Shown piece by piece: positions 7,546-53,708 of a DNA stretch of 53,708 bases (position 1 is the first letter of the stretch; each line of letters starts with the position of its first letter). The position numbers were made by a program, and so were the translations under genes. The notes beneath the pieces are model-generated. The model saw only the letters and a program-made list of their open reading frames with translations, was not told where the DNA came from and ran no database searches. This DNA is from Candidatus Woesearchaeota archaeon (GTDB lineage: Archaea > Nanobdellota > Nanobdellia > Parvarchaeales > Parvarchaeaceae). The DNA lies in NCBI GenBank assembly GCA_964641875.1, contig CAZXLU010000002.1:1-53708 (forward strand), read 5' to 3'.

Positions 7546-9024
7546 ATGAATAAAGCTTTGCCAATAGCTGCCTTGATTGTTTTAGTTATCGTAGTTTTAG
7601 CATTTGTGCTGTTTTATCATCCAATTTCAGTTAGTGTTACAAAGCCATCAACAACTTCTGCTACGCCGATAGCTATGACCGATCCTGCAGAACTACCAGC
7701 CAATACCACCAGTTTGTATATCTCGTATTCATCTTTCAAAATACTGTACTTTAATTCAAATCATTCAGCAGGTACTTTAACAGTCAATTCCTCGGGCAGC
7801 ATAAATCTACTTTCATTGTTGAACGTGTCTAAGGTTTTGGCTGTAGCAAATTTACCATTAAATTCATCTGTAAAAGAAATACAGTTTACCGTAGTTTCTG
7901 CAAACGCTACAATAAATGGTACAACACAAAGCGTAAAAGTAGCGAGTCCAATAGTAACGGCAACGGTTCCTGCAAACTTCAATAAAATAAACAGTTCTTC
8001 TTCCCTTATTTTAGATTTCACACCGGCTTTGATAAGTGTTTATACTGCAAATTCAACAGAATATATATTAGTTCCCTCACTTCTTGCTTTATCATCTACA
8101 GGAATAAAAAATCATGCAATAGGCACAATATCAAGAATACCGGCAAATATCAATAAAACGTTATTCTCTGCAAGACCAAATATAACTATAACGTCTGCAA
8201 CGCTGCAACAAGTAGGCAATTTAACAAAGATAAGTGTAACTGTAAAGGACAATTCAAATCAATCTGTAGTTTTACAACATTTAAGGTTAAAGATGATAAA
8301 TGGCTTTAAATTGTTAACTTTCGGCTTCAATGGAAGTTTATTTAATAATACAAAGTTTAGCTTAAAGAAATATATGTTCAATGTAAGCAATATCATTTCA
8401 AAAGTTAAAGCACATTTGCCTTCATTTATAAGCACTCTAAATAGTTCAATATATTCAAATTTAAGTAGTATTAATTCAAGTATTGGAGGCAGTATCGGTA
8501 GGATAATTAAATCTAAATTTAACGGGTCTTTCGGTAAATTTGGAGCAATAGGAAATAGAATGGAGCAGCAATTCCAAAATGTACAGAGCCAGATGCAGCG
8601 TAATCTTGTAGCTAATGAGAATAGGTTGAATATCATGAAAAGAATCTTAGCAGGTGTCTCAGTAAACTTCTTTATATCCTCAAATGGAACGATGTTTCTG
8701 CCTTTCTCAGGTCATAGGCTTTTTAATTTACCTTTTAACGTCAGTTCTGTAAAGGTAAATAGAATAAACAGCACGGATATGAACATATCCTATAATCAAT
8801 CTGGTTTATCTGCAGAGATAGCAAACAATAGCAGTTTCTCTTTGCCATTTAACTTTGGATATTCCTTATCGCCTGGACAGACTGTGACTCTTACATTTTC
8901 AGGAGAAATGAACTTAGGTGACGGTTTAGTTTCGCTGCAGTTAATCCCAGGAACACAGTATAATCTGTACTTACAGGGAACAGAGGGCGCAAGAGCATTT
9001 TATACTGTGAATGCAACAAGCTGA
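7546..9024 (+). CDS. N-terminally anchored, heavily sequon-decorated extracellular protein (DUF4382-like N-terminal domain)
   Basis: TM anchor ALPIAALIVLVIVVLAFVLFY. I count about 28 N-x-S/T sequons by eye. The pattern INLLSL...LILDFTPALISV resembles DUF4382. Confidence 0.6.
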   Translation: MNKALPIAALIVLVIVVLAFVLFYHPISVSVTKPSTTSATPIAMTDPAELPANTTSLYISYSSFKILYFNSNHSAGTLTVNSSGSINLLSLLNVSKVLAVANLPLNSSVKEIQFTVVSANATINGTTQSVKVASPIVTATVPANFNKINSSSSLILDFTPALISVYTANSTEYILVPSLLALSSTGIKNHAIGTISRIPANINKTLFSARPNITITSATLQQVGNLTKISVTVKDNSNQSVVLQHLRLKMINGFKLLTFGFNGSLFNNTKFSLKKYMFNVSNIISKVKAHLPSFISTLNSSIYSNLSSINSSIGGSIGRIIKSKFNGSFGKFGAIGNRMEQQFQNVQSQMQRNLVANENRLNIMKRILAGVSVNFFISSNGTMFLPFSGHRLFNLPFNVSSVKVNRINSTDMNISYNQSGLSAEIANNSSFSLPFNFGYSLSPGQTVTLTFSGEMNLGDGLVSLQLIPGTQYNLYLQGTEGARAFYTVNATS

Positions 9025-9207: not shown

Positions 9208-9711
9208 ATGAAAGGAATAAAAGTCTATATTGACGATGATATAGATCAGAGGATAAGAAAGGTTGCAATGGCTCGATTTGGCTATGGAAAAGGTTCTCTG
9301 AGCAAAGCTGTAGAATCAGCAATCATACAGTGGATTAATTCTATTGATTATACAGAAAAAATATTAAAAGAGGTAAAGGAAAAAGCGGAAAAAGATGAAA
9401 ATATTATAGCGGTCTATCTGTTTGGAAGTTACGTAAGTGGAGAAAAATACTTTAATGATATTGATATAGCTTTTCTAGTTAAAGATAAGGCAAAATTTGA
9501 TAAAAATATATACAAATTAGCTGATAATCTCGATTTAGCAGTAATGCAAGATCTGCCATTAAATATACAAATGAGAATATTTGAGAAGGGGAAATTACTT
9601 GTAGTAAATCAAAATTCTAAATTATTAGATTACTATTTTGAATGCTTTGAAAAATGGGAAGATTTCAAAGACACTTTTTATGATATAATTGGGGTAGTTA
9701 AAAATGGATAA
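9208..9711 (+). CDS. MNT-type nucleotidyltransferase antitoxin with an N-terminal ribbon-helix-helix domain
   Basis: N-terminal RHH-like KVYIDDDIDQRIRKVAMARFG...SLSKAVESAIIQWI, then the minimal NTase motif LFGSYVSGE...DIDIAF. It overlaps the HEPN gene by 8 nt. Confidence 0.8.
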   Translation: MKGIKVYIDDDIDQRIRKVAMARFGYGKGSLSKAVESAIIQWINSIDYTEKILKEVKEKAEKDENIIAVYLFGSYVSGEKYFNDIDIAFLVKDKAKFDKNIYKLADNLDLAVMQDLPLNIQMRIFEKGKLLVVNQNSKLLDYYFECFEKWEDFKDTFYDIIGVVKNG

Positions 9712-10111
9712 GGAGAGAATATTATACAGACTTAAAGAATTAGAATATTATGTTAACTTACTTGAAAAGATTATACCTACAAAGAGCAGCGAATACGTAA
9801 AATCTGATGAAGTAAAAAAAGCGGCAATAGAAAGATACTGTCAGCTAATAAGTGAGGCTCAGTTAGATATTTGTAAGGAAATTTACAAAAGTATGAATTT
9901 GCCCCCGCCTAATTTAAATGAGTCCATATTCCAAAAACTTGAAGACAAAATTGACTCTAAAACCCTGTCGAAAATAATAAAATTAAGAGAAGTAAGAAAT
10001 GAGCTTGTACATGCATATTCAAGTTTTGACGACTTAAAATTGTTCAATGCCTTAATGCCAAATGATTACATGCACGATTTTATAAAGGAAATAAAGAGTT
10101 TAATCTTATAA
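9704..10111 (+). CDS. HEPN (DUF86) toxin
   Basis: R-x4-H motif RNELVH (nt 9995-10012) in a 135-aa all-helical protein immediately downstream of an MNT gene. Confidence 0.8.
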   Translation: MDKERILYRLKELEYYVNLLEKIIPTKSSEYVKSDEVKKAAIERYCQLISEAQLDICKEIYKSMNLPPPNLNESIFQKLEDKIDSKTLSKIIKLREVRNELVHAYSSFDDLKLFNALMPNDYMHDFIKEIKSLIL

Positions 10112-26617: not shown

Positions 26618-28975
26618 ATGAACAAATTGCTTTTAACCGTTGTATCTATAGTTTTTATAGTTTTTTTATTTTCTAGTGTAAATGCACAGGCTCCCCCACC
26701 TACAACTTCAGTTTCTTCAAATGGGTTTTCTTTAGGGCCTTTATCAAATGTAAATTCTTCAATTTACGCAGCTTTCTTTGCGATAGTCCTTTTCATTGTA
26801 TTTGCTATAGCTTTAGACAGAACACAGCTTTCCAGCGGTAGAATAGCAATTTCACTAATTTTGGGGCTAATAACTTTTTTTGTGCTGTATACTAATAGTA
26901 CATTACTGCATTTCTTCTTGAATACTTTCATAGTGTTAGCATTTATAGCATTGATACTTGGAATGCTTGCGGCAGTTAAATCCCCCAGGTCTATAAAACT
27001 TATCGGTTTGGTGGTTGCTTTATTTTTAATATACATCCTCTTTGCAAACGATTCTGGGCTTACTAATTTTATAGATTCATTTTTACATATTGATATACTT
27101 CAGATACTGCCACTAATATTAGGGGCAGTAGCTATTCTCACCATAATTATTCTTATTTTAAGGGCTATGAGAAATCATAAAAGTATAGGATTACGCGCGG
27201 TTCTTGCATTTATAATTTTAATGATGATAGTTTTGCTTATACCAGGTTTTGCAAGTTTCTTGTTTAATCCAGTAATATTGATAATCTTGACTATTCTGAT
27301 AATTCTTGTTATAATAGCGATTTTCTACTTTGGTAGGCGTCATCCAAGAGGTCCTAGAGATATAAATGGATATAAAAAACCTTCAAAAGAGGCAAAATTG
27401 CAAAATAAAGTTTTATCATCAATAAATGATAGGAAGGCGGCAAATGCTGATGTATTAAAGGAATATAAAGAATTAATTAATAAAGGAAATTTAACGCCGA
27501 ATGAGCAGCTAAGAGTAGCACAGCTTAAAAATAAACTGGCAAATGAAGCGTGGAAGAATGTAGCTGACAGAACAAAGCTTACACAAGTTCAGTACTCTAA
27601 AAGCCAGCTTTCCAATAATAGGGACTTACAAAAACTAACAGGTTTCTTCTCAAGAAATCAGGCTTTGAGAGATTTGAAATCAGAAGCAAAGAAAAACTAT
27701 AAATTATCATGGTCAGAGAGGAGGGCGCTAAAAAACAGGGAAAGGTTTATAAAGAACTCTGAGAATCCTCAAGCAGGCGATATATTTGATCTAGCAAATT
27801 CAGTTAGAAATGGTAGTTTAGGCAATATCCCTTCAGAGAAGGCTGCGAGGAAGATATTTGAAAGGAGGCTATCCAAAGAAGCAAGGAATAAAGACGTATC
27901 AAGTTTGCTGAATGAAAGAAATAAAATTTTAGATCCATCGCTTAATTTATCAGATTCTACGAGACGTAAACTTTTAGCAAAGCTTGATAAAGACCTACGT
28001 AAAGTTTCTCCCAATATATCTCCTGATAAAATAAATCAGAAAAGGCTTATAAAGGAACAAAAAGAACAGTTAAGACAGGAGATGCTTGAAGATAAAAGAC
28101 TGCAAGAAGCGCAATTGGAAGCTGCTAGGAAAAATGCTGAAAAAGAGAGGCAAAGAATGTCAGAAGAACAATCTAAATCAGAAGGTGGAGCTCCTAATTC
28201 AAGCAGTGGGCCTGGTAACAAAGATAATGAGCATTTCATAATACCAGCAACAGGATTAAAGAGCGGCAGAAGCTTTTTCAGGAAAGGGATTAAAGGAGTC
28301 AAAGGCGGACCATTCGCTAAAAAAGCAGACATAGAACAATTCAAAAATGATAACCCTCCACCATCTCTGTTTCTAGAGGTTGGGGGTATAAATAATGGAA
28401 TGGAAAGAAATGGAATGTCAGAAGAACAATCTAAATTAGCAGAAGCAGGTAAGCAGCAAGAAGAATTAGTGGAAAATAAGTCAGAAAATTTAATAGGATT
28501 TGAAACTGAAAGAGGCTCTAAATACACATATTCAGATAATAAAGTATTAAGAAATAAGTATGATGGTACAAAAGATGAATGGACGTTAAATGTTTTTGTA
28601 CCACCATACGAAAAATTAGATGAAAAAACAAAGGATAAACTTAGGAGGGTGTATAACGTAGATAATAAGGCCTTATACGAGAATCTTCTAGCGGATTTTG
28701 TGTATGATTATTCGCCTCGTATTGGCTATTTTGAAAACGGGGAATTTCATCCAATTAAAAGTGATGAAGATGCAAAAGGAAAAGATATTTACTTTGTAGC
28801 TTTATTTAAAGATGGCGATAAGAAAGGTAAATCAGCATTTACTGTTAAAGTAGATAAACAGCCTGAGGTCGGTTATTTCCCTTATCAAGAAAATCATCTA
28901 GAAGCAGAGAAAACCCACAAGTACTTAAAGCATTTAGGAGATAAAGTATTAAAACTCATAAAGAAGAACAAATAA
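26618..28975 (+). CDS. Orphan 785-aa protein: signal peptide, polytopic membrane domain, long basic coiled-coil, Gly/Pro-rich linker, C-terminal globular domain
   Basis: Signal peptide ending VNAQA-PPPTT, about 7 TM helices to aa 240, and a K/R/E/Q-rich heptad-like region at aa 260-510. C-terminal domain FETERGSKYTYSDNK...VGYFPYQENH. No family motif recognised. Confidence 0.7.
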   Translation: MNKLLLTVVSIVFIVFLFSSVNAQAPPPTTSVSSNGFSLGPLSNVNSSIYAAFFAIVLFIVFAIALDRTQLSSGRIAISLILGLITFFVLYTNSTLLHFFLNTFIVLAFIALILGMLAAVKSPRSIKLIGLVVALFLIYILFANDSGLTNFIDSFLHIDILQILPLILGAVAILTIIILILRAMRNHKSIGLRAVLAFIILMMIVLLIPGFASFLFNPVILIILTILIILVIIAIFYFGRRHPRGPRDINGYKKPSKEAKLQNKVLSSINDRKAANADVLKEYKELINKGNLTPNEQLRVAQLKNKLANEAWKNVADRTKLTQVQYSKSQLSNNRDLQKLTGFFSRNQALRDLKSEAKKNYKLSWSERRALKNRERFIKNSENPQAGDIFDLANSVRNGSLGNIPSEKAARKIFERRLSKEARNKDVSSLLNERNKILDPSLNLSDSTRRKLLAKLDKDLRKVSPNISPDKINQKRLIKEQKEQLRQEMLEDKRLQEAQLEAARKNAEKERQRMSEEQSKSEGGAPNSSSGPGNKDNEHFIIPATGLKSGRSFFRKGIKGVKGGPFAKKADIEQFKNDNPPPSLFLEVGGINNGMERNGMSEEQSKLAEAGKQQEELVENKSENLIGFETERGSKYTYSDNKVLRNKYDGTKDEWTLNVFVPPYEKLDEKTKDKLRRVYNVDNKALYENLLADFVYDYSPRIGYFENGEFHPIKSDEDAKGKDIYFVALFKDGDKKGKSAFTVKVDKQPEVGYFPYQENHLEAEKTHKYLKHLGDKVLKLIKKNK
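28155..28178 (+). repeat. 24-nt perfect direct repeat, copy 1 (gaatgtcagaagaacaatctaaat)
   Basis: Identical to 28413-28436. In-frame, encodes MSEEQSK. Confidence 0.9.
28413..28436 (+). repeat. 24-nt perfect direct repeat, copy 2
   Basis: Identical to 28155-28178, offset 258 nt (86 codons). Confidence 0.9.
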
Positions 28976-36899: not shown

Positions 36900-37379
36900 C
36901 TATATAATTTTATAGTAATTTTTGAAATTGCTTTCGAATAAGCTTATACTGCTTGCAATAAATGAGAATTCCTTTTCTTCTGCCATTTTATTAAATTGTT
37001 TTTTTATTTTTTTTACTCTACATAAAGTAACATGTGGTTTAAAATCTTCATCGAATTTAATCCTTAAAAAATCAGCTATGTCTTTTGCAATGGTTTTTAA
37101 ATTATTATGAATTTCACCATATACGATACGTGGTTTAATAATATTTGGGAACCCATTAATTCCGCTTATTCTTATATCATCTAAGAATTTAATATCTCTT
37201 ATAAACTCTTTAAATTCCTCACTTATCTTAAAATTTCCTAAAAAAAGGAGGGTTATATGCAATTTCTCCTCTTCTGTAAATTTTCCATCAAAATATTCTT
37301 CTAATAAGGGATAGTAGTATGAAATGATATCTTTTTTTATTTGTGAAGGGATATCAATAGCAACAAAATATCTTTTCAT
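36900..37379 (-). CDS. 2H phosphoesterase (LigT/ThpR, 2'-5' RNA ligase family)
   Basis: Two HxTx motifs, LHITLLF and PHVTLCR. The start MKRYFVAIDIP at 37379 forms an ATGA overlap with the upstream stop. Confidence 0.8.
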   Translation of the reverse strand: MKRYFVAIDIPSQIKKDIISYYYPLLEEYFDGKFTEEEKLHITLLFLGNFKISEEFKEFIRDIKFLDDIRISGINGFPNIIKPRIVYGEIHNNLKTIAKDIADFLRIKFDEDFKPHVTLCRVKKIKKQFNKMAEEKEFSFIASSISLFESNFKNYYKII

Positions 37380-38296
37380 TTTACAGTTTCTATTGAATCT
37401 ATCTGTCCATCTCCGTCTATATCGTATCCACGGACCATCATACTCCAAGGCGCTTCGTTAGAGTATCCCTTAAATGTAAGATTTGAAAATCTGGTTGCAG
37501 CAAGAATCGCTGACAGCGTCCCTATGTTTCTTACTCCAGCAATTAGTATTATATCCTTTTCCTTGTCAAAGGGATTTTTTATCTTCTCTATGGTTCCTTC
37601 GTAATCCCTGATGTGTATGCCATTTCTGTCTTTAAGGGCCCAGCCTTCCTCCTTTATAAATTTTATCGGGAGAAAATTATTTATGTCTCTTGTAACTAGA
37701 TTTGTCACTGGCCCTCCTATAACTATTAAATTGTTTTTGAACATATTCTTTGATATAACATCAGTATCTAAAACAATTGGAAGTGAACTCGGCAAATCAA
37801 TAAATTGTCCAAGAAACATACCTAGATATGCTGTATAATGCGAGTCCTTTGCGACAGACTTGTATTCTCCGTGAGGGTCTGAAGCTCCAACACATATATA
37901 ACCATTAAATTTTCCATTGTTTATGAATTTAGAGAAGAAATTTAAGGCGTACTGGTTTTCTTTGTTTCTGCTTCTTGGGTCAAACTTTACGTTATTTTGA
38001 TTTATTTCATATGAAAATGAATTGTAAACTGCTTTAACCAACTGGGTATCTTTTTGTTGGGTAATCTCTACTAAACCGGCTTTTTCCATCTTGGATAGAT
38101 ATAAATTTAAGGCCTTTTTATCGATTTTAAGTTCCTTTGAAAGCGCGTCTGCTTTATACTGTTTTTTAGATATCTTCTTTAGTATTGTGATTGCTTTCTC
38201 ATCAGCAATGTTTTTTACATCCTTTATATCCTCTAATAGCTTTGTATCATTCACAAAATAATTCTCTCCGTCGTTCTTAAGAATATAATTTTTCAT
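37376..38296 (-). CDS. Winged-helix (ArsR/MarR-like) N-terminal domain fused to a domain resembling the C-terminus of the surface protein at 3..407
   Basis: wHTH-like ALSKELKIDKKALNLYLSKMEKAGLVEI. Later LIVIGGPVTNLV...DIILIAGVRNIGTLSAILAAT parallels VIVMGGPAVNTL...ALWVAGYNASGTVEASEVLAAS. No signal peptide or TM. Confidence 0.6.
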   Translation of the reverse strand: MKNYILKNDGENYFVNDTKLLEDIKDVKNIADEKAITILKKISKKQYKADALSKELKIDKKALNLYLSKMEKAGLVEITQQKDTQLVKAVYNSFSYEINQNNVKFDPRSRNKENQYALNFFSKFINNGKFNGYICVGASDPHGEYKSVAKDSHYTAYLGMFLGQFIDLPSSLPIVLDTDVISKNMFKNNLIVIGGPVTNLVTRDINNFLPIKFIKEEGWALKDRNGIHIRDYEGTIEKIKNPFDKEKDIILIAGVRNIGTLSAILAATRFSNLTFKGYSNEAPWSMMVRGYDIDGDGQIDSIETVK

Positions 38297-45391: not shown

Positions 45392-46588
45392 ATGGTTGTA
45401 GAAAGAGAGAGAATCCCTGCAGTTGTAATACTACTGCTTATGTTGATTGGTTCTGTAGTCATATATCTTTTATTAGTCCCGCCACCTGTAGCTTATAAAC
45501 TTCTTGGTATAAACAATACCAGCACTTCCGTTCCGACCATACCAAAAGGAGAGTTCTACAAAAGCCTAAACATTTATATAGGTGGTAATAGCAAGCCAAT
45601 CAACACTAGTTATTCAATAGGCACTTTTGGAGTAGATTTCCCGATATCAAATTCGACAATTTTCAATAAAAGTGATATTTCAATAGGCTCAAGCATATTT
45701 GGCTCGTCATCATACAATTTAGATTTTAATTCATCACAGAATTCTACCTACTTTTTAATTGTGAAAGTCGAATCCGTTTCAGGAAGTCCAAAGATGACAT
45801 TCTCACTGAATGGTAAAAGTTTCTTCTCAACATTACCAGCAAAAAATGAGACAATAACCGAGAAAATTCCAGTTAATTCAAATTCTAAAAACTTGCTATC
45901 TATAACCGACAGTTTAAACGGTTTTGCATTTACACAATCATTTAAACTATCAAACGTACAGGTTGTAGAAGAAAAGGGGAAGAACAATGCTTATTCTATT
46001 CCAATAAAAATATTAACTTTCAGTGGAGTAGGGGATTATTCTCTAGATTACACCCCTATAGGATATGGCTTATTGAATGTCTACATAAATAATCAAATTG
46101 TATCAAGCATAAACAGCGGAAATGATACACAGCAAGAAGTAAATATCCCTCCTAATGTTATATCAAGGGCAATAAGGAATTCAAATGCCTCTTCTGTTGT
46201 TTTTCCAGTAGAATTTAATGTGGCTTTTCAACCTGCGGAAAACGTCTCTTATGAAATTGCAAATGCCGCGCTTAATTACGAGATACCTTTTATAGCGGAA
46301 AATTCTCCATCAATATACTATTCTGTGAACGCTACAAAAAGCAATTACATACTTACTTTTGATGTTTCCAGTATAATAGATAAGGGCAATGTCTACTTTT
46401 ATTTCACTCCCAGCGGCAGTAATGTTACAATGGCTGCAAGTCAATTATCAAGTGGAGAAAATGTTCTTTTAATCCCTTCTACTTATCTTGGCAATCCTTC
46501 AAATGGAAATTATAGTGGCACTATAAAAATATCTTCAAATGGTTTAGTTATACCATCGTTCATCTCATTAAAATCTCTTTCCAGTTGA
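45392..46588 (+). CDS. N-terminally anchored, sequon-rich extracellular protein (first gene of the surface locus)
   Basis: ERERIPAVVILLLMLIGSVVIYLLLV anchor, loosely like the haloarchaeal pilin-N pattern. Many N-x-S/T sequons. Confidence 0.6.
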   Translation: MVVERERIPAVVILLLMLIGSVVIYLLLVPPPVAYKLLGINNTSTSVPTIPKGEFYKSLNIYIGGNSKPINTSYSIGTFGVDFPISNSTIFNKSDISIGSSIFGSSSYNLDFNSSQNSTYFLIVKVESVSGSPKMTFSLNGKSFFSTLPAKNETITEKIPVNSNSKNLLSITDSLNGFAFTQSFKLSNVQVVEEKGKNNAYSIPIKILTFSGVGDYSLDYTPIGYGLLNVYINNQIVSSINSGNDTQQEVNIPPNVISRAIRNSNASSVVFPVEFNVAFQPAENVSYEIANAALNYEIPFIAENSPSIYYSVNATKSNYILTFDVSSIIDKGNVYFYFTPSGSNVTMAASQLSSGENVLLIPSTYLGNPSNGNYSGTIKISSNGLVIPSFISLKSLSS

Positions 46589-46590
46589 AA

Positions 46591-46598
46591 TTTAAATA
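46591..46598 (+). promoter_or_regulatory. TATA-box candidate for the zinc-finger gene
   Basis: TTTAAATA ends 21 nt before the ATG at 46620. Confidence 0.4.
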
Positions 46599-46619
46599 TG
46601 AAGAAGTAGTATCCTTATT

Positions 46620-48068
46620 ATGTTGATAAAGCTTAATAAGAAGGGGCAGGCAGCCGGCGGGGCATCACAACCACCCAATAATCCGCCTCCAAAAGATAAT
46701 AATCCAACGCTCAAAGGTAAGAGGAAATTTACATGTGAGGTATGTGGTCAGAGATTTCCTACAAAGGGATCGTTATGGGCCCATTTACAAAACGTTCATG
46801 GTTATTCTCCACAGCTATTAGAATTAGAAGAAGAAAAGAAAAAAAATAGAAAATTGCTAAACACAGATAGTATTATAAGATCTGCGAAAAAACATTCTAT
46901 TTTGCTTGCACCATTTATTATTATAATAATCCTTGTAGTTGTTTACTTCGCATTTTATGCATCCACTAATGTCGGGATAGTTTACACTGAAGTAACATAC
47001 GGAAGTATCTTTTCAAAGGTAAGCGGGCTTATTTCTTCCGGGTTTTCAGCTATCTCAACCTTTATAGCCGAGATACAGAATCCAAATCTACTGATATCAC
47101 AACCACATGTTACTAGTACAAATTCCACACCAACATTTTCTTCCTTTTTAACATTTAATTACCCACCAGATCAAGAGGTTGTTTTAACTAGCAATCCGCA
47201 GCAAGGGTCAATATTCTATTCTGTTACGAATAATGCTAATGTTCCATTGGGCCCAGGTACTTCTAATAATCTGCTTGTGAATATCTCCTGTGGGAGTACA
47301 GTATCTACTGGGGCAGCGCAGTATTGCAAAGATATGTTAACTAAGTTTATAAATCCCGTAGAAACAAGTAGCTCTCCACCTTCCGTTAACGATCAATCTT
47401 TAATAAATATCCTAGCTCCAGGAGAAACAAAAGAGAATACAACTTATTTCGATCTATCATGTCCTAGCAAAAAATTGACTTTTCCATTATCAATGTCATT
47501 GCTTGCAACTTTCTTAATAAAAAATTATACTGCTGCAGTTATTCTGCCAGTAGAATTCATGTCCAATTCCTTTCAAAATCAATTGCTATCCTCAGATCAG
47601 GCATTTGTTCCTTCAGAGCCTTCGTTTAATTTTTATTCCTCTGGTCCAGTTCAGATGGAAGTTTATACTGATGCAAGACAACCTATACTGACAAAAATAA
47701 ATTCGCTTCCATTGCAGGTAACAATAAAAAACAATGGAAACTATCCTTACGATATCAATAATTTGTCATTGTATATAAGCAAAGCGTTTTATCCTACAAA
47801 CCCATCAACAAGTTATTGGAAATGCTCTACTGCAACGCCTTTTATTAGACAAGGTTTTCATTTCCCTGGAAATAGTTATTGGAATTGTTACATAGATAAT
47901 AGTAATATACTTTCTTCAGGGAAAAGTTTTTATCTTGGTTTGCCAGCAGTAAATTCATTAAATGGTATGCACTTCAATACAATGACAATAATTGGTTATG
48001 TTAATTATAATTATAACGAAAGCTTAAACATGCCAGTAGTTGTAAGCAATCAAACATGTAAGAGTTGA
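46620..48068 (+). CDS. Membrane protein: prepilin-like leader (NKKGQ), Pro-rich spacer, classical C2H2 zinc finger, TM helix, ectodomain paralogous to the downstream pilin-like proteins
   Basis: FTCEVCGQRFPTKGSLWAHLQNVH (C-x2-C-x12-H-x4-H, nt 46728-46799). TM ILLAPFIIIIILVVVYFAFYA. The ectodomain has LQVTIKNNGNYPYDINNLSLYI and a C-terminal VNYNYN motif. Confidence 0.65.
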   Translation: MLIKLNKKGQAAGGASQPPNNPPPKDNNPTLKGKRKFTCEVCGQRFPTKGSLWAHLQNVHGYSPQLLELEEEKKKNRKLLNTDSIIRSAKKHSILLAPFIIIIILVVVYFAFYASTNVGIVYTEVTYGSIFSKVSGLISSGFSAISTFIAEIQNPNLLISQPHVTSTNSTPTFSSFLTFNYPPDQEVVLTSNPQQGSIFYSVTNNANVPLGPGTSNNLLVNISCGSTVSTGAAQYCKDMLTKFINPVETSSSPPSVNDQSLINILAPGETKENTTYFDLSCPSKKLTFPLSMSLLATFLIKNYTAAVILPVEFMSNSFQNQLLSSDQAFVPSEPSFNFYSSGPVQMEVYTDARQPILTKINSLPLQVTIKNNGNYPYDINNLSLYISKAFYPTNPSTSYWKCSTATPFIRQGFHFPGNSYWNCYIDNSNILSSGKSFYLGLPAVNSLNGMHFNTMTIIGYVNYNYNESLNMPVVVSNQTCKS

Positions 48069-48069
48069 T

Positions 48070-49059
48070 ATGATAAATAAAAAAGGAGCAAGTGGTGTAG
48101 TTGGCGGCGTTTTCGTACTTATAATAATTGTAATATTGTTCCTATATGGACCAATAATACTCAATAAAATAGGTTTCTCCCCAGTTCCATCAGCTAGTTC
48201 TTTGAATAAAACAGTAGCAGTTGGGGTTGTTTCAATAAATTCTCCTTCCAAAGTTTCTCCATCATCTAAATTTGGAGTCACTTTTCTTGTTGCAAATAAT
48301 CTCAATGGAGCGGCAGCTTCAAACATATTTTTCTGCTTGGATAATCTTGGCTTATTCTCAATAGTCTCAAGCCCGCAAGAATCCAATCCAAGTCCAAATG
48401 GAAACGCTATAACAAGTGGTAGGTGTGTCAGTATACCATCACTTGCAACTGGTAGCATACTTTCAGAGGGTTTTACATTGTCAGCACCGCCAGCTAGTTA
48501 TTACGGTAACATACAATATTCACAAAATTTAGGTTATTACTTAAATTTCTCTTATGTTGGAAAGGCAATGCAACAGTTAGAATTCGTCTCACAAAGTGCA
48601 AGCAATAGCGGAAATTATCCTTCACCAACAACCCAAACTTCAGGAGTAACGGCAGGCCCTATAGAGATATCTTCTTCATCTTCACAGCCGGTAGTGTATG
48701 GACAGGACATAGAACTTACTATAAATCTTAATAATATAGGGTTGGGCACTCCTATAGGTAAGGCAAATCTTTCAATATATATAAATAGTTCAATACTTAC
48801 AATTACCGGAGCGAATGCCTTAGGATTAAAAACTAGACAATTTAGCAATGGAACTGAAGTCTTGTATGATCAAGTATCTATAGGCCCTAACGGCGCTTCT
48901 ATAACGCTGCCGGTTGCCTTATCCTCTTCGGAATCAACTAAGTTATCAAATTCAAACGTTCCAGTTTTTACTGATGATATGAATTTTAATGTTCATTATT
49001 CATATGAGCAAGAAGGATATATACCAATAAGTTTGTATATATCTCCATATTCAATCTAA
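48070..49059 (+). CDS. Class III (prepilin-type) signal peptide protein, ~300-aa pilin-like/adhesin subunit
   Basis: MINKKG/ASGVVGGVFVLIIIVILFLYG. The start lies 1 nt after the upstream stop. Ectodomain motif ELTINLNNIGLGTPIGKANLSIYI. Confidence 0.65.
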   Translation: MINKKGASGVVGGVFVLIIIVILFLYGPIILNKIGFSPVPSASSLNKTVAVGVVSINSPSKVSPSSKFGVTFLVANNLNGAAASNIFFCLDNLGLFSIVSSPQESNPSPNGNAITSGRCVSIPSLATGSILSEGFTLSAPPASYYGNIQYSQNLGYYLNFSYVGKAMQQLEFVSQSASNSGNYPSPTTQTSGVTAGPIEISSSSSQPVVYGQDIELTINLNNIGLGTPIGKANLSIYINSSILTITGANALGLKTRQFSNGTEVLYDQVSIGPNGASITLPVALSSSESTKLSNSNVPVFTDDMNFNVHYSYEQEGYIPISLYISPYSI

Positions 49060-49072
49060 TTGAAAATTAAGT

Positions 49073-49081
49073 TTTTATATA
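49073..49081 (+). promoter_or_regulatory. TATA-box candidate for the 49103 gene
   Basis: TTTTATATA ends 21 nt before the ATG. Confidence 0.4.
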
Positions 49082-49102
49082 CTTATTGTACATATAATCT
49101 AT

Positions 49103-50029
49103 ATGTATAATAAGGGTGCAAGCGGTGCAGCTATTGTCGGCGTTTTAATTATCGTTATAATATTGATAGTTGTTATATATGGAATTAACAGCGGAAAATT
49201 GAATTTTGGTAAAACCAAGTCTTCAACTCCAAATTCTTTCTATATATCTGCAAGTTTAAATGCCACATCAATTTATTCCGGACATTCTGCACCATTATAT
49301 CTCACTTTTTTTAATCCTTTTAACCAGCCGGTTAACCTCCAATTACAGGCAGAGATCGGTTCACCTAATTATGTTGCGATTTCACCAAGTTCAAAAACAA
49401 TAAGCATGCCTGCTTCTATGTCTACACCAACTTCTGTTCTATTTAATGTTTCCTGCCTTGGTTCCAGTTCTAGCGTTTCTTCAACTTACCTTTTTTCATC
49501 GAAAGTTACAGACTTTTGGCAAAATTTTACAACATCTGTGATAACTTATCCATATGGCATAGCTTCATCATTGATACCACAAACGATTTATAATAATACT
49601 AATCAGGGATTCATGTCAGTTACTGCAAACCCAATTTCTATAGAAACTCAGATACCTTCTGGCTCTTTATCACAAAATATGAATCTAGCTATATCACCAA
49701 CCTATGATAGTGGCGAACCATATACGGAAATCTCTTCCGGAACCCCAAATAAGGTTTTGAGCAATATAATAATTACAATAAAAAATTCGTCAGGAATAGC
49801 GTCGGCATCCGCATATTACAATGGTCAAACTTATCCATTTTCTGTTTCAGGTAAAACTCTAAAGCTTTCCCTTTCAAACGTAAATTTGGCATTGATAAAG
49901 CCTTATTTGACATTTGATATAAGAGCAACTAATCTAAATTCTACTTCGCAGAATATAGTAAACATAGATATAAATTACAATTATTACTTCTCATTCCCAG
50001 GTTCTCCAGCTCAAATATCTTGTGATTAA
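49103..50029 (+). CDS. Class III signal peptide protein, pilin-like paralog
   Basis: MYNKG/ASGAAIVGVLIIVIILIVVIYG. Motifs LYLTFFNPFNQPVNLQL and C-terminal INYNYY. Confidence 0.65.
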   Translation: MYNKGASGAAIVGVLIIVIILIVVIYGINSGKLNFGKTKSSTPNSFYISASLNATSIYSGHSAPLYLTFFNPFNQPVNLQLQAEIGSPNYVAISPSSKTISMPASMSTPTSVLFNVSCLGSSSSVSSTYLFSSKVTDFWQNFTTSVITYPYGIASSLIPQTIYNNTNQGFMSVTANPISIETQIPSGSLSQNMNLAISPTYDSGEPYTEISSGTPNKVLSNIIITIKNSSGIASASAYYNGQTYPFSVSGKTLKLSLSNVNLALIKPYLTFDIRATNLNSTSQNIVNIDINYNYYFSFPGSPAQISCD

Positions 50030-50915
50030 TATGGATAAAAAAGGACAAAGTGGGGTTATAATAATTGTTATAGTAATAATAGTAATTGGTATTCTCTTCT
50101 TATACCATGAAGGTTATTTTAGTGCAAAAACATCAATAACCACTACTAAGCAGAATGTAAATCCTTACCTTCCAATTTCTTTTAATATTTCTTCTACAAA
50201 TAACCTAGCTCATCTTTATACAAATCAAAATATAAACATAATTTCCAGTTTAGTTAATTCCGGAAACGAGCCTATAAACTTAATTCTTTCTCCTTACGGC
50301 TGCTCTTTCCTTCCAATACAAAATAAAAGCGTTTCAATACCAGCCGGTTCTTCAACGTCTTTACAATGGACTTTTTCCGGATCCAATCCGACTACTTGCA
50401 GTATAACGCTTCTTGCTTGTTTTAATGCAGTTTCTTATACAAATTACCCTTTGACTATAGAGAGCTATAAATTTACTGGAAAAGCCCCAAGTTCCGCTTC
50501 AACGGCATCTTCTGGTTTACCAATAGATTTATTCTTACAGTCATTTAACTCAACAATAGTAGCTGGGCCTTCTCCAGTTAATAATACAGAATACATTTAT
50601 GGATACGCATTAACATCTACAGGTTCTACTTCAAGGCTCAATTGGGTTTCAATCTCGATAAATAATGGAAAAGGTTACTTTACAACATCTACTGGGAAAA
50701 CCCTAGAAATAAATCCAAATATAAACATAACAAATTCACAGTATCCATTAACATTTGAACATGGCAAACTTCTAGCTCCCGTATCATTTTCATTGCTAGT
50801 TCAGCCAGTTTCAAATTCTTTAGGTTATTACACTGGAGCAGCAATAAACGTAAGCGCTGGTTATACTTATTGTTTAACTTCAAACAGCATACCTATAACA
50901 TTACATAGCTCTTGA
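50022..50915 (+). CDS. Class III signal peptide protein, pilin-like paralog
   Basis: MINMDKKG/QSGVIIIVIVIIVIGILFLY. Motif SSLVNSGNEPINLIL. The start may be ATG 50031, just after the upstream stop. Confidence 0.65.
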   Translation: MINMDKKGQSGVIIIVIVIIVIGILFLYHEGYFSAKTSITTTKQNVNPYLPISFNISSTNNLAHLYTNQNINIISSLVNSGNEPINLILSPYGCSFLPIQNKSVSIPAGSSTSLQWTFSGSNPTTCSITLLACFNAVSYTNYPLTIESYKFTGKAPSSASTASSGLPIDLFLQSFNSTIVAGPSPVNNTEYIYGYALTSTGSTSRLNWVSISINNGKGYFTTSTGKTLEINPNINITNSQYPLTFEHGKLLAPVSFSLLVQPVSNSLGYYTGAAINVSAGYTYCLTSNSIPITLHSS

Positions 50916-51656
50916 ATTATCTAATAAAAGATTTATCGCTTCTTCTTCATTTTTGCTTAATTCCCCGGGTATTAATATCACCAAAGGCGGTTTTAATTTT
51001 TCTATTTCTTTACCTATAGCTTTTTCTATCTTTTGAGAAGCACCGCCAAGCCTGGAAACCACAAGGACATTTTCCCAATTAATTATTTTTTTATTTCTCT
51101 TTTGCTCTATGTTTTTTATTATCATGACAGCATCTTTAGCATTTAAAAAAGTATTTTCATCTCTTACTTCTAAAAGTATTAAAGAATGGTAATTCAATGA
51201 AAGGTTTTTTTCTATAACATCGAAAAAGCTTTCTGGTTTAAAATTTTCTGTGTATATGGGTATACTGGTTGTACCACCGAATTTGTACAAAGATAATCCT
51301 GTTTCACCAAGTGCAGAAAATATGCTTGAAGCGTGTACAATTTCAAATTTTATATTTTTTTCTATGCAATCTTGTATGATAGAAAAATGTGTTGTTGCTG
51401 CCAACGGGTCTCCAGGGACTAAAATAACAATATCTTTATCTTTTGCTTTTTCAACGATGAAACTGCTTTCCAGAGTTTCTCTTTTTATTATACTTATTTT
51501 TTTATTAGTTGTTTTTTCAAGCTCATCCAGAAAACTTATGTCATTTAAATTCGTATATCTTTCAAGGAATGCTTCGTCACAATTTTTTATAAGATCTATC
51601 GCTCTAAATGGCAAATCATTTAAATAATATAATCCAGTACCTATTAAGTGTAGCAT
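50901..51656 (-). CDS. dph5: Diphthine synthase (Dph5)
   Basis: MLHLIGTGLYYLNDLPFRAIDLIKNCDEAFLERYT and VPGDPLAATTH, a tetrapyrrole-methylase fold typical of Dph5. Confidence 0.9.
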   Translation of the reverse strand: MLHLIGTGLYYLNDLPFRAIDLIKNCDEAFLERYTNLNDISFLDELEKTTNKKISIIKRETLESSFIVEKAKDKDIVILVPGDPLAATTHFSIIQDCIEKNIKFEIVHASSIFSALGETGLSLYKFGGTTSIPIYTENFKPESFFDVIEKNLSLNYHSLILLEVRDENTFLNAKDAVMIIKNIEQKRNKKIINWENVLVVSRLGGASQKIEKAIGKEIEKLKPPLVILIPGELSKNEEEAINLLLDNSRAM

Positions 51657-52494
51657 GGTATATCAAATGGATTATGTAATATTTATCTTTGTGCTTGCCA
51701 TACTTACAGCAGCATCTATAAGCGACTTTAAAAGTAGAGAGGTTCCGGATTCAATAAGTTATATCCTTATAATAGGTAGTTTTTTACTTGTTTTGGCTTA
51801 TTCAATAGAGTATAAGACAATATCAAATTTATTATATATGCCGCTATCTATACTGTTAATAGCTGGTTTTTCTTATATTATGTATAGGATAGGCCAATGG
51901 GGAGGCGGCGACGTAAAGCTTTTATTTGGTTTAAGCTTGGTTTTTACTTCTTTAAACCTGTTTTCAAATACTTCTTTTGTAGCATTGTTAATAAACATAC
52001 TTCTTTTCGGTGGTGTTTATGGTTTATTAGGCACTATAATATTAGGACTTGTAAAGATTAAGAAACTTAAAAAATATTTTAAAGCATATGATATCCCTTT
52101 TTTTGCAGTAATGGCAATCATTATAGTAATATCAATTTTCCTTATCCCATTACCACTTAATGTTTTTATTTCCATTGCAGCTTTCATGCTTTTTTCATTG
52201 CGTTTTTTATTCCTTGTTGCAAACAATTTAATGTATGTTAATGAAAAAGTAGAAAAGCTTACAGAAGGAGACTGGATCGCTGAAATTCCTAAAGATAAAA
52301 ATGGAAAGAATATAATAGCAGATAGAAGTACGGGGTTGACTCTATCAGACATACAGAAACTCAAAGAAAGCGGAGTTAAAGAAGTTTTAGTAAAAATAGG
52401 TCTGCCATTTGTTCCTGGAATATTGTTTGCAGTTATTATAACGATTGTTTTTGGAAATCCTCTGCTTCAAATCCTCTCTTCTTTGTATCTTTAG
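51655..52494 (+). CDS. A24-family prepilin/preflagellin peptidase (PibD/FlaK/EppA-like) with an archaeal C-terminal domain
   Basis: First Asp motif SISDFKSREVPD and second Asp motif WGGGDVKLL. A soluble insert EKLTEGDWIAE...VKEVLVKIGLPFVPG precedes the last TM. Confidence 0.85.
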   Translation: MVYQMDYVIFIFVLAILTAASISDFKSREVPDSISYILIIGSFLLVLAYSIEYKTISNLLYMPLSILLIAGFSYIMYRIGQWGGGDVKLLFGLSLVFTSLNLFSNTSFVALLINILLFGGVYGLLGTIILGLVKIKKLKKYFKAYDIPFFAVMAIIIVISIFLIPLPLNVFISIAAFMLFSLRFLFLVANNLMYVNEKVEKLTEGDWIAEIPKDKNGKNIIADRSTGLTLSDIQKLKESGVKEVLVKIGLPFVPGILFAVIITIVFGNPLLQILSSLYL

Positions 52495-52791
52495 AAATCC
52501 AGGATATTTTCATCCCTCTCTAACTCATAATCCTCGTCTGGGTCCTCTCCTTCTCTATCAGTAATAGAAAATTCCTTTCTTTTCATAAATACACTACAAT
52601 ATAGTAATATAGTTTGTTCTATTTAAATATTTCTAATTTATAAATACCAACTAAAATAGTGATTTTATTCAAAAATCATGTGTTAATATATTGACTGCAA
52701 ATATGGCCTTTTAAAATTAACCTTTAAATTTTGATTTTTTAAAGTATTTATCTTATTATTTAGAGAGATAATTATAGGGATAAAATATTTT

Positions 52792-53708
52792 ATGAAGGTA
52801 TTTAATAGAAAAGGTCAGCAAGTAGTAGAAGCTTTAATGACTTACGGATGGATGATTCTTATCGTGGCGGTTGTTATAGCTTTGATTTTTGCTCTTGGTA
52901 TCGTTCCATTAAATTTTGTTCCGCCATCTGCAACTATAAGTGGGTTTTCAGGTGTTAAAGTTACTGCTGTTGTTGCAAATTACACATATCTCGAATTTTA
53001 TGTTTCAAATGATCTTTCTATCCCTGTTAATTTAAATAAATTTTTGTTAAGTTATAATAGTACGTATTTCTCAAATATTAAGTGTCAATATCTTACGCTC
53101 TCTCCAGGCCAAAATTCTATATGTTTCTTGAAGATAAACCTAGCGAATACGAGAGATACCGTAAGTTTAGGTATGGGTTTCGCAATAAATAGCAATTTAA
53201 ATGCTTCTTCAAACGGTACAATGTCATTTGTTCCAGTGAAAATTTCCTTGTATTTACCACCAACTATTACAGTATTCAATGAAGAGGGTTTAACAACTGG
53301 AGTTCAATGGTGGGTAGATTATGATGGAAAGAATGTTTCTTCTACCGGTAAATCCATTTCAATATCTACAGTGTTTGGAGATTATTCATTTATAGTTGGA
53401 AATGTAACTTTCAATGGTTGCAAATTTACAGCATTGCCTTCTTCAGGAACGCTTGAATCAGGTTTATCTCAAAACATAATATTCATAAATTCCTGTGCAG
53501 CGACATTTATTGAAAAAGAATTACCAAAGGGAACAAGTTGGCAAGTTACATATGCAGGCAAACAGCAGTCTACCACAAATAATATCTTAGTATTTACAAA
53601 TGAGAAATCTGGTACTCATTCATTTTCAGTTGCTAATTCTGTAGTGGCTGGGTGTACATATTCACCTTCCCCTTCTTCAGGAACATTATCCGTTGGTAGT
53701 TACAAGTA
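52792..53708 (+). CDS. Class III signal peptide adhesin-like protein with ~78-aa tandem repeats; 3' end beyond the window (not in the ORF track)
   Basis: My own translation of frame 1 gives MKVFNRKG/QQVVEALMTYGWMILIVAVVIALIFALG with Glu at +5, no stop to the window end, and two repeats starting near 53269 and 53503. Confidence 0.7.
   Translation, partial: MKVFNRKGQQVVEALMTYGWMILIVAVVIALIFALGIVPLNFVPPSATISGFSGVKVTAVVANYTYLEFYVSNDLSIPVNLNKFLLSYNSTYFSNIKCQYLTLSPGQNSICFLKINLANTRDTVSLGMGFAINSNLNASSNGTMSFVPVKISLYLPPTITVFNEEGLTTGVQWWVDYDGKNVSSTGKSISISTVFGDYSFIVGNVTFNGCKFTALPSSGTLESGLSQNIIFINSCAATFIEKELPKGTSWQVTYAGKQQSTTNNILVFTNEKSGTHSFSVANSVVAGCTYSPSPSSGTLSVGSYK

Follow-up and report, generated by a model that had tools for sequence, protein, structure and literature searches.

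How does an archaeal locus come to hold several large proteins with prepilin-type N-termini, and a prepilin peptidase close by, with no assembly ATPase or platform protein in view? The question is raised by genes 45392-50915 and their downstream neighbours in a 53,708-nucleotide (nt) stretch of DNA from a Candidatus Woesearchaeota archaeon of the Parvarchaeales (assembly GCA_964641875.1, contig CAZXLU010000002.1, positions 1 to 53,708), which we refer to as the window. The initial annotation, made from the letters of the window, described a surface-appendage locus of a possibly new type. Part of that description stands, as these are surface proteins with prepilin-type N-termini. The other part, a self-contained new appendage locus, does not: profile comparisons and gene order indicate that genes 1-5 are a module ancestral to Nanoarchaeia, whose homologues elsewhere are lipoproteins. 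We read genes 45392-50915 as the Parvarchaeales version of a five-protein, membrane-anchored hetero-oligomeric surface complex with prepilin-type anchors, and we put the probability of this reading at about one half. It builds on the gene content, conservation, homology, anchor types, fold and peptidase catalytic motifs observed at the locus.

Gene layout of the locus

The genes discussed below are listed with their coordinates, strand and the evidence for each (aa, amino acids; ORF, open reading frame).

45392..46588, + strand: P1, a 398-aa surface protein with an N-terminal signal anchor (ORF; Parvarchaeum orthologues; profile homology).
46620..48068, + strand: P2, a 482-aa bitopic membrane protein (ORF; hydropathy; profile homology).
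48070..49059, + strand: P3, 329 aa, starting MINKKG/ASG, whose hydrophobic helix leads through a flexible linker to a pair of Ig-like domains (ORF, AlphaFold2, profiles).
49103..50029, + strand: P4, 308 aa, with MYNKG/ASG and a hydrophobic helix, a paralogue of P5 (ORF, hhalign).
50022..50915, + strand: P5, 297 aa (294 aa from ATG 50031), with MDKKG/QSG and a hydrophobic helix (ORF, profiles).
50901..51656, - strand: a dph5-like diphthine synthase (Pfam TP_methylase, E 3.7e-17).
51655..52494, + strand: an A24 FlaK/PibD-type class III signal (prepilin) peptidase (Pfam, both Asp motifs).
52792..53708, + strand: the 5' 305 codons of a giant class III adhesin-like gene (orthologues 1380-1763 aa).

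The ORF positions bear out the co-directional arrangement of the five genes (45392-50915, all on the + strand). Between successive longest ORFs the gaps are 31, 1, 43 and -8 nt; public gene calls begin the fifth gene at ATG 50031 (MDKKG/QSG), which turns the last gap into +1 nt, and place the peptidase start at 51667.

Class III-like N-termini

The class III-like N-termini that had been flagged on genes 48070, 49103, 50022 and 52792 are present exactly as quoted. Their leaders end in KKG/A (P3), NKG/A (P4), KKG/Q (P5) and RKG/Q (the giant protein), in agreement with the class III pattern at positions -1 and -2, and a Kyte-Doolittle scan gives a mean hydropathy of 2.6-3.5 over 18 residues, in agreement with the pattern's stretch of about 20 hydrophobic residues. 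Cleavage after the Gly would give predicted mature N-termini of ASGVVGG..., ASGAAIV... and QSGVIII....

A six-frame scan of ORFs of at least 50 aa, in which [KR][GA] within the first 16 residues had to be followed by a strongly hydrophobic 18-mer, found this signature at seven start sites in the 53.7 kb. Five are on the four flagged genes (two of them alternative starts of 50022), and the remaining two are g7546 (MNKA/LPIAAL) and one internal start. It is thus concentrated in the final 5.7 kb, beside the peptidase. The scan yielded no candidate for a small major pilin in the window.

The predicted cleavage sites are conserved among orthologues from metagenome-assembled genomes (MAGs). For both the 48070 and the 49103 genes, position -1 is G in the window copy and in 7/7 MAG orthologues. 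For the 50022 gene, the window copy and 6 orthologues have G and one orthologue has A; for the giant gene, the window copy and 7/8 orthologues have G and one has A. The +1 residue across these orthologues is always A, S or Q, and G at -1 with a small or polar +1 residue is also kept in nine more distant family members. Each of the locus proteins has a single hydrophobic segment near its N-terminus (residues 88-123 in P2). Their ectodomains carry little charge and have many Ser, Asn and Thr residues and N-glycosylation sequons, a composition to be expected where an ectodomain is exposed to acid.

The five-gene module in other Nanoarchaeia

A P3 profile searched against 1.84e9 (1.84 billion) representative proteins found only 38 relatives, with class III-like N-termini among the close and lipoboxes among the distant members. 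On the contigs of five distant members from other Nanoarchaeia (L023-L027), we found five co-directional genes with matching sizes and topologies. Position 1 encodes a protein of 390-470 aa, often with a KG/Q class III-like N-terminus, and position 2 one of 550-670 aa with a cytoplasmic N-terminus, one or more transmembrane (TM) segments and an ectodomain. Positions 3-5 encode three lipoproteins with lipoboxes such as ...LVLGC, LILGC and LLAGC, which are mutually paralogous (89-99% by hhalign). The gene order P1-P5 is identical in L020, L021, L023-L027 and L030. In L023-L027 the usual neighbours are a Hel308-type helicase on one side and PAC2/eIF2alpha/S27e on the other, and the 8-10 kb flanks, where the contigs reach, hold no A24, T2SSE or T2SSF gene.

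Additional genes accompany the module in three of these loci. A MazE-PIN toxin-antitoxin pair is inserted between P3 and P4 in L024 (11735-12414), a 237-aa KaiC/RadB-like ATPase lies directly upstream of P1 in L025 (86-799), and L027 has an additional 242-aa Zn-ribbon protein between P1 and P2 (5356-6084).

Profile comparison connects the Parvarchaeales proteins with those of the other Nanoarchaeia at P3 (hhalign 98.7%, E 1.5e-16), at P1 (97.6%, E 4.7e-12, 282 columns) and at the P2 ectodomain (91.7%, E 7.8e-7, 246 columns). P4 is equated with position 4 because of its position, size, topology and paralogy. Because the orthologous ectodomains are lipid-anchored in most Nanoarchaeia, the ancestral role would be that of a tethered complex of five single-copy proteins, not of a homopolymer. 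Given the lipoprotein homologues, the Parvarchaeales genes are better read as something other than a homopolymeric filament of ~300-aa subunits, and of the options first raised for the locus it is the bindosome-like surface assembly that the evidence favours.

In the window, lipobox-like N-termini are found on 0/69 ORFs. Lipoproteins and the lipidation enzyme AliA are common in DPANN archaea, and AliA has gaps in DPANN and Thermoplasmata (PMC12462473). The missing lipoboxes and the AliA gaps fit, and do not prove, a loss of lipid anchoring in this acidophilic lineage. Non-pilin class III proteins that depend on a shared peptidase are established for the Sulfolobales binding proteins and predicted widely (bioRxiv 10.64898/2026.04.22.720090; PMC4858521). 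Class III signal peptides on non-pilin proteins are of a known kind, as are the A24 peptidase and the modular adhesin. Our literature search, which was limited in reach, found no earlier description of the five-gene module; within that search, the module and the lipobox-to-prepilin anchor switch appear undescribed.

Structure and paralogy of P3-P5

BLASTP among the five proteins, and among the three of ~300 aa, detects no similarity beyond the N-terminus. The proposal that the three are paralogs is borne out at the profile level, in a relationship to which BLASTP is blind: P4 and P5 align by hhalign with 95% probability (E 1e-8, up to 255 columns), and P3 and P5 align more weakly within Parvarchaeales (91% over 75 columns).

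An AlphaFold2 model of P3 made from a 44-sequence alignment (predicted local distance difference test, pLDDT, 88.3; predicted template-modelling score, pTM, 0.75) supersedes a 17-sequence run (pLDDT 55, uninformative Foldseek matches). The model consists of a helix at residues 8-33 (26 residues), a low-confidence linker at 34-50 (17 residues) and two beta-sandwich domains at 52-173 and 198-322. Foldseek matches in the PDB are generic tandem Ig-like assemblies only, with template-modelling scores of at most 0.26 (integrin legs, complement MG domains, transglutaminase barrels and the AglB C-terminal domain), and no archaeal pilin or archaellin is among them. None of the locus proteins matches a pilin or archaellin family in Pfam or NCBIfam. 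The P3 model also has no long N-terminal helix packed on a globular domain, the structural mark of a pilin.

Homology to solute-binding proteins had been named as a finding that would count against the initial description. We rejected such an identity for P3-P5 on the tandem Ig-like fold of the P3 model and the lack of any match to a solute-binding Pfam family. ABC transporter genes are absent from the flanks of the module. The size of the subunits had also been called much larger than that of archaellins or pilins, and this is overstated: a type IV pilus (T4P) locus from Aenigmarchaeota holds 428- and 608-aa pilin-like genes, and a length of about 300 aa is known for several archaellins as well as for the Iho670 fibre protein.

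P1 and P2

P1 starts with MVVERERIPAVVILLL..., a signal anchor without a K-G site, and carries 14 N-glycosylation sequons. It matches no family in Pfam.

P2 opens with a conserved M.LKINRKGQAAAGG, which is followed by a Pro-rich stretch, a C2H2 zinc finger (37-60), a TM segment at ~95-117 and a ~360-aa ectodomain. The zinc finger, which matches Pfam zf-C2H2 at E 1e-4, below the cutoff, is placed on the cytoplasmic side. The M.LKINRKGQAAAGG start is kept in all Parvarchaeum P2 orthologues, and a Zn ribbon is present at position 2 in L027.

This class III-like start ('KINRKGQAAAGG'; 46620-46760 in the window) resembles a cleavage site, but it has no hydrophobic helix behind it; the helix comes only ~90 residues on. 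In L023, P2 (8325-8400) starts with MNKKG, and in L025 (2228-2330) it has a 27-residue leader that ends in KG directly ahead of the TM helix. The P2 N-terminus may be an ancestral pilin-like start split by an insertion, or it may contact the cytoplasm-facing site of the peptidase.

Conservation of the block in Parvarchaeales

Using the truncated last gene of the window as the query, a genome-collection scan identified eight contigs from Parvarchaeum/ARMAN-4-type MAGs at 65-72% identity, which makes the source of the window an acidophilic DPANN member of the Parvarchaeales. The order FEN1-DUF357-[five genes]-dph5(-)-A24 is kept in 7/7 Parvarchaeum MAGs of the scan and in 4 near-identical contigs. 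The same block is also syntenic in a deeper Parvarchaeales lineage (L030 among the loci), which is only 32-47% identical. In the 7 Parvarchaeum MAGs, P1 orthologues have 67-69% identity, and peptidase orthologues have 69-77%.

The dph5 gene converges on P5, diverges from the peptidase gene and occupies the same place in all Parvarchaeales loci. It is a housekeeping gene, outside the system yet part of the conserved block. Its start (-) and that of the peptidase gene (+) stand back to back, with a 2-nt overlap of the longest ORFs, and its end shares a 15-nt convergent overlap with P5 (50901-50915), leaving essentially no intergenic room for promoters around it (50901-50915, 51655-51667).

In ARMAN-4 the giant gene runs on past the point where the window ends, and after it come 23S rRNA, a small membrane protein, TBP and IleRS. 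Other MAGs have a ~300-320-aa N-terminally anchored protein after the giant gene, and then the contig ends. All assemblies, the window among them, break within the giant gene or soon after it, because of the 23S rRNA downstream and the internal repeats of the giant gene. The 23S rRNA lies 3' of the giant gene in ARMAN-4 (L008 5236-8119) and directly after the peptidase in L030 (14831-17320), a deeper lineage from which the giant gene is missing. The giant gene would therefore be a later insertion between the peptidase and the 23S rRNA.

The prepilin peptidase and the assembly machinery

Gene 51655 encodes, as first described, an A24 prepilin peptidase with both Asp motifs (Pfam Peptidase_A24, 49.5 bits versus a cutoff of 26.5). 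The catalytic motifs SISDFKSREVPD and GGGDVKLL both align to the FlaK structure 3S0X, in which the D of SISDFK and that of the GGGD motif fall on the aligned catalytic Asp positions. The protein also has weak Pfam matches to Arc_PepC and Arc_PepC_II, and it is not a FlaK equivalog (NCBIfam FlaK_Arch, E 2e-7, 30.8 bits versus a cutoff of 330). An exact-match look-up with its sequence gave no record. Calling the peptidase dedicated goes further than the layout permits, as the opposite-strand dph5 stands between it and the five genes; it is probably the general class III peptidase of the genome. Its adjacency to the module is nevertheless held across the deep Parvarchaeales divergence noted above.

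All window ORFs of 186 aa or more that lie outside a longer ORF were searched with Pfam, and none of them matches T2SSE or T2SSF, which agrees with the earlier statement that the 53.7 kb encode neither ATPase nor platform. A canonical pair immediately beyond the window, which would point to an ordinary pilus locus, was also looked for, and none lies within 7 kb downstream in ARMAN-4. The missing ATPase and platform, presented at first as unusual, are not remarkable. Chen et al. 2018 (Table S6) list K07332 (FlaI-type ATPase) in 1-3 copies in 14/14 Parvarchaeota genomes, including ARMAN-4 and ARMAN-5, and K07333 in 6/14, and a related family of Parvarchaeota is reported to have VirB11 and TadC (PMC7779479). 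As an ATPase is listed in all 14 genomes, the machinery would be encoded elsewhere in the genome.

For the organism studied here, it is these published KEGG tables that suggest the existence of an ATPase/platform locus. An attempt to reach the Parvarchaeum locus through relatives of the pilin head did not find it, the homologue search giving one fragment. A degenerate DNA pattern for ALMTYGWMI gave two chance matches in metagenome contigs, neither encoding a pilin-like protein. A 496-aa polytopic ORF without a Pfam match (4153-5643) was considered as a divergent platform and rejected: it lies beside GT2/DPM-synthase genes, and from this context its product is more likely a membrane glycosyltransferase-type protein.

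The giant class III protein

The window holds the first 305 codons of the giant gene, whose full length in relatives is 1380-1763 aa. Its product starts with MKVFNRKG/QQVVEALMTYGWMILIV and continues into repeated beta domains. In orthologues of full length, the C-terminal end is a DUF2341 region (26.3 bits versus a cutoff of 23.4 in the ARMAN-4 orthologue). This type of N-terminus (KGQxxVExLMTYGWMI) is shared by 178-192-aa pilins of Aenigmarchaeota encoded directly downstream of T2SSE and two T2SSF genes, and it is that of 'system 1' in a 2026 survey of type IV filaments (TFF) (bioRxiv 10.64898/2026.04.22.720090). By its sequence, the giant protein seems to be an adhesin of modular build, headed by a pilin-like N-terminus of the system-1/Epd type. 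It recalls the LamG-like proteins tied to T4P loci in Mia14, a relative of ARMAN-2.

The beta domain of ~80-90 aa that recurs in the giant protein (GxxWxVxYxG...Y.F.V) is also found, at 38-39% identity, in proteins of 1984 and 3014 aa on a Micrarchaeota contig (L009 4886-10840) and an unclassified archaeal contig (L010 284-9328), which suggests an adhesin repeat common to these lineages. The Aenigmarchaeota contig L013 (195-10450) carries a complete system-1-type T4P locus, with five pilin-like genes (141, 148, 175, 608 and 428 aa), a helix-turn-helix protein, T2SSE, two half-size T2SSF genes and a 178-aa pilin. Very large pilin-like proteins therefore do occur in canonical DPANN T4P loci.

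Other genes in the window

The window is AT-rich (~32% GC), and Pfam scans identify the housekeeping genes EF-2, FttA, PolB, GlmS, FEN1, Kae1 and a proteasome subunit. Gene 7546-9024 (+) encodes a 492-aa surface protein with 28 glycosylation sequons, whose N-terminus, MNKA/LPIAALIVLV, also fits the class III pattern. It has a sub-threshold match to DUF4382 (24.9 bits versus a cutoff of 25) and a homologue on the Micrarchaeota contig L009 (35-1162, 28% identity over 424 aa).

Two overlapping small genes at 9208-10111 (+) resemble, by sequence, a toxin-antitoxin pair of a nucleotidyltransferase (GS...DIDI) and a HEPN protein (RNELVH). The 785-aa product of 26618-28975 (+) matches nothing in Pfam. 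Its N-terminus resembles a signal peptide, hydrophobic segments occur several times within the first ~240 residues, and a long region rich in Lys and Glu is probably a coiled coil. Gene 37376-38296 (-) encodes a 306-aa protein with the odd domain pairing of a TFIIE-alpha/HTH_5/TrmB-type winged helix (27-100) and S_layer_C (172-265, 32 bits, above the cutoff).

Discussion

We propose that the lipid anchor of P3-P5 was replaced in Parvarchaeales by a class III (prepilin-type) signal peptide. The pre-proteins would insert into the membrane, where the neighbouring FlaK/PibD-type A24 peptidase would remove a leader of 5-8 residues after the conserved Gly. The hydrophobic helix of ~25 residues that is kept would then tether each subunit through a flexible linker, and the five subunits would assemble as a hetero-oligomer of fixed stoichiometry at the cell surface. 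Optionally, the processed helices could dock on a short T4P-like stalk built by an ATPase and platform encoded elsewhere, an arrangement already put forward for the Sulfolobus bindosome. The same peptidase would also serve the downstream giant class III protein.

Several observations weigh against this proposal. P4 has no profile match to position 4 of the other Nanoarchaeia by hhalign, and P5 matches position 5 weakly (hhalign 16%, E 1.6e-3, 120 columns; hmmsearch E 1.7e-4 in a small database). The anchors were swapped in one evolutionary transition only (n=1), which makes any association of class III anchors with a neighbouring peptidase anecdotal. In P4 orthologues, position -2 varies (K, Q, H, L, Y), and some leaders are barely basic. 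Position 1 is class III-like in most of the other Nanoarchaeia loci that we read (for example MKKG/QYRVMIIIIG), and the module may thus be linked to type IV filament biology. The globular domains of archaeal pilins are likewise Ig-like, so the fold of P3 is compatible with a pilin role. Finally, cleavage, complex formation and function are what we infer.

These points bring up the question of whether P3-P5 could be minor pilins of a split T4P system, forming a priming or tip complex or a short pseudopilus, perhaps with the giant protein at the tip. The conserved class III-like leaders beside an A24 peptidase would be explained, as would the resemblance of the giant N-terminus to small pilins encoded beside T2SSE and two T2SSF genes. 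The 428- and 608-aa pilin-like genes of the Aenigmarchaeota T4P locus are in keeping with such large subunits, and four or five minor pilins together with a large adhesin are the norm in bacteria. The 1-3 K07332 ATPases of Parvarchaeota genomes, the K07333 of some and the VirB11/TadC of the related family (PMC7779479) could supply the machinery, and archaeal pilin genes often lie apart from the ATPase (PMC4858521). Against all this stand the homologues of P3-P5 in other Nanoarchaeia, lipoproteins encoded within the same set of five genes and without T4P genes in the vicinity. The P3 model also departs from a minor pilin, with a short helix and flexible linker in place of a long alpha-1 packed on the globular domain, and neither sequence nor structure gives a pilin or archaellin match, nor does the window hold a small major-pilin candidate. 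Lipid-anchored proteins, to our knowledge, cannot be filament subunits. We regard the minor-pilin arrangement as rather unlikely.

It is improbable that the N-termini of P3-P5 are uncleaved (type II) signal anchors, in which K-G results from the positive-inside rule and the peptidase is adjacent by chance, with only true pilins such as the giant protein as its substrates. P1 of the same operon is indeed anchored without a K-G site, the often non-basic -2 residue of P4 orthologues (Q, H, L, Y) is atypical for PibD/FlaK substrates, and, with the opposite-strand dph5 in between, the peptidase gene belongs to a different transcription unit. However, Gly (once Ala) at -1 followed by A/S/Q is invariant in three proteins down to ~36-44% identity, which is more constraint than a generic anchor needs. 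The peptidase adjacency is also kept in lineages that are 32-47% identical, and the pattern is otherwise rare in the window.

We consider it very unlikely that the five proteins make up a Nanoarchaeia S-layer or cell-wall lattice with P3-P5 as anchored stalk or lattice subunits, encoded by an envelope-structural operon free of any adhesive or appendage function, even though the module is kept in tiny genomes next to housekeeping genes, its ectodomains are tandem Ig-like and sequon-rich as several archaeal S-layer proteins are tandem Ig-like and glycosylated, and ARMAN cells have a cell wall by cryo-electron tomography, since the proteins match no S-layer family in Pfam or NCBIfam, S-layers usually consist of one or two abundant proteins and not five single-copy ones, and the cytoplasmic zinc finger of P2 suggests transmembrane coupling in place of a passive lattice.

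A tethered five-protein complex with prepilin-type anchors has its nearest parallel in the class III binding proteins and bindosome of Sulfolobales (GlcS, AraS, TreS, BasABC/BasEF, PibD). Both systems present class III-like non-pilin ectodomains, both are from acidophiles, and in both the genes lie apart from the ATPase and platform. Sulfolobales have binding proteins processed by a PibD of broad specificity where euryarchaeal or neutrophilic counterparts use a lipobox, and P3-P5 of Parvarchaeales likewise have lipobox relatives. Unlike the Sulfolobales bindosome, the module has tandem Ig-like ectodomains in place of periplasmic-binding-protein folds, no adjacent ABC transporter and a fixed set of five genes with a zinc-finger membrane protein. 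The archaeal lipobox lipoproteins (AliA/AliB) are a second point of reference: the P3-P5 homologues of other Nanoarchaeia share the lipobox, whereas Parvarchaeales P3-P5 are without its Cys.

Among filament systems, the archaeal T4P/TFF 'system 1' (Epd-like) of methanogens and DPANN archaea is similar in its A24 peptidase, its large pilin-like genes and the giant N-terminus KGQxxxExLMTYGW. In contrast to system-1 loci, the Parvarchaeales locus has no ATPase, platform or small major pilin in the 53.7 kb or downstream, and P3-P5 lack the system-1 N-terminal motif and have lipoprotein homologues. The bacterial minor-pilin and tip complexes (GspHIJK, FimU-PilVWX-PilY1, Streptococcus sanguinis PilB/PilC) also place several pilin-like genes beside a large adhesin-like gene, and Ig-like or DUF2341 modules on a pilin-type N-terminus are reminiscent of bacterial modular pilins. 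We found no homology to the bacterial tip complexes in sequence or structure, however, and with lipoproteins among the homologues, incorporation into a filament is unlikely to be obligatory.

DPANN archaea need physical contact with a host, yet the proteins of the contact structures are largely obscure, and the module supplies five defined proteins. Its retention across Nanoarchaeia orders with very small genomes suggests an important role in the envelope or at the host interface; a part in the envelope architecture or host contact of an ectosymbiont is plausible but speculative. More tentatively, and with some doubt, the module might be a class-wide Nanoarchaeia machine for host contact or exchange, in which P2 couples its zinc finger to P1 and P3-P5, and which Parvarchaeales would have rewired onto the type IV filament pathway through prepilin-type anchors, the adjacent peptidase and the addition of a pilin-headed giant adhesin beside it.

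The switch in anchor chemistry from lipobox to prepilin-type helix would have taken place within one orthologous set, parallel to that in acidophilic Sulfolobales. It bears on how surface proteins are tethered without lipoprotein machinery or at low pH, and on how the substrate range of class III peptidases grows. P1-P5, the peptidase and the giant adhesin are concrete targets in ARMAN/Parvarchaeum enrichment cultures. If true, a rewired host-interface machine would show how, in nature, a lipoprotein complex can turn into a pilin-processed one.

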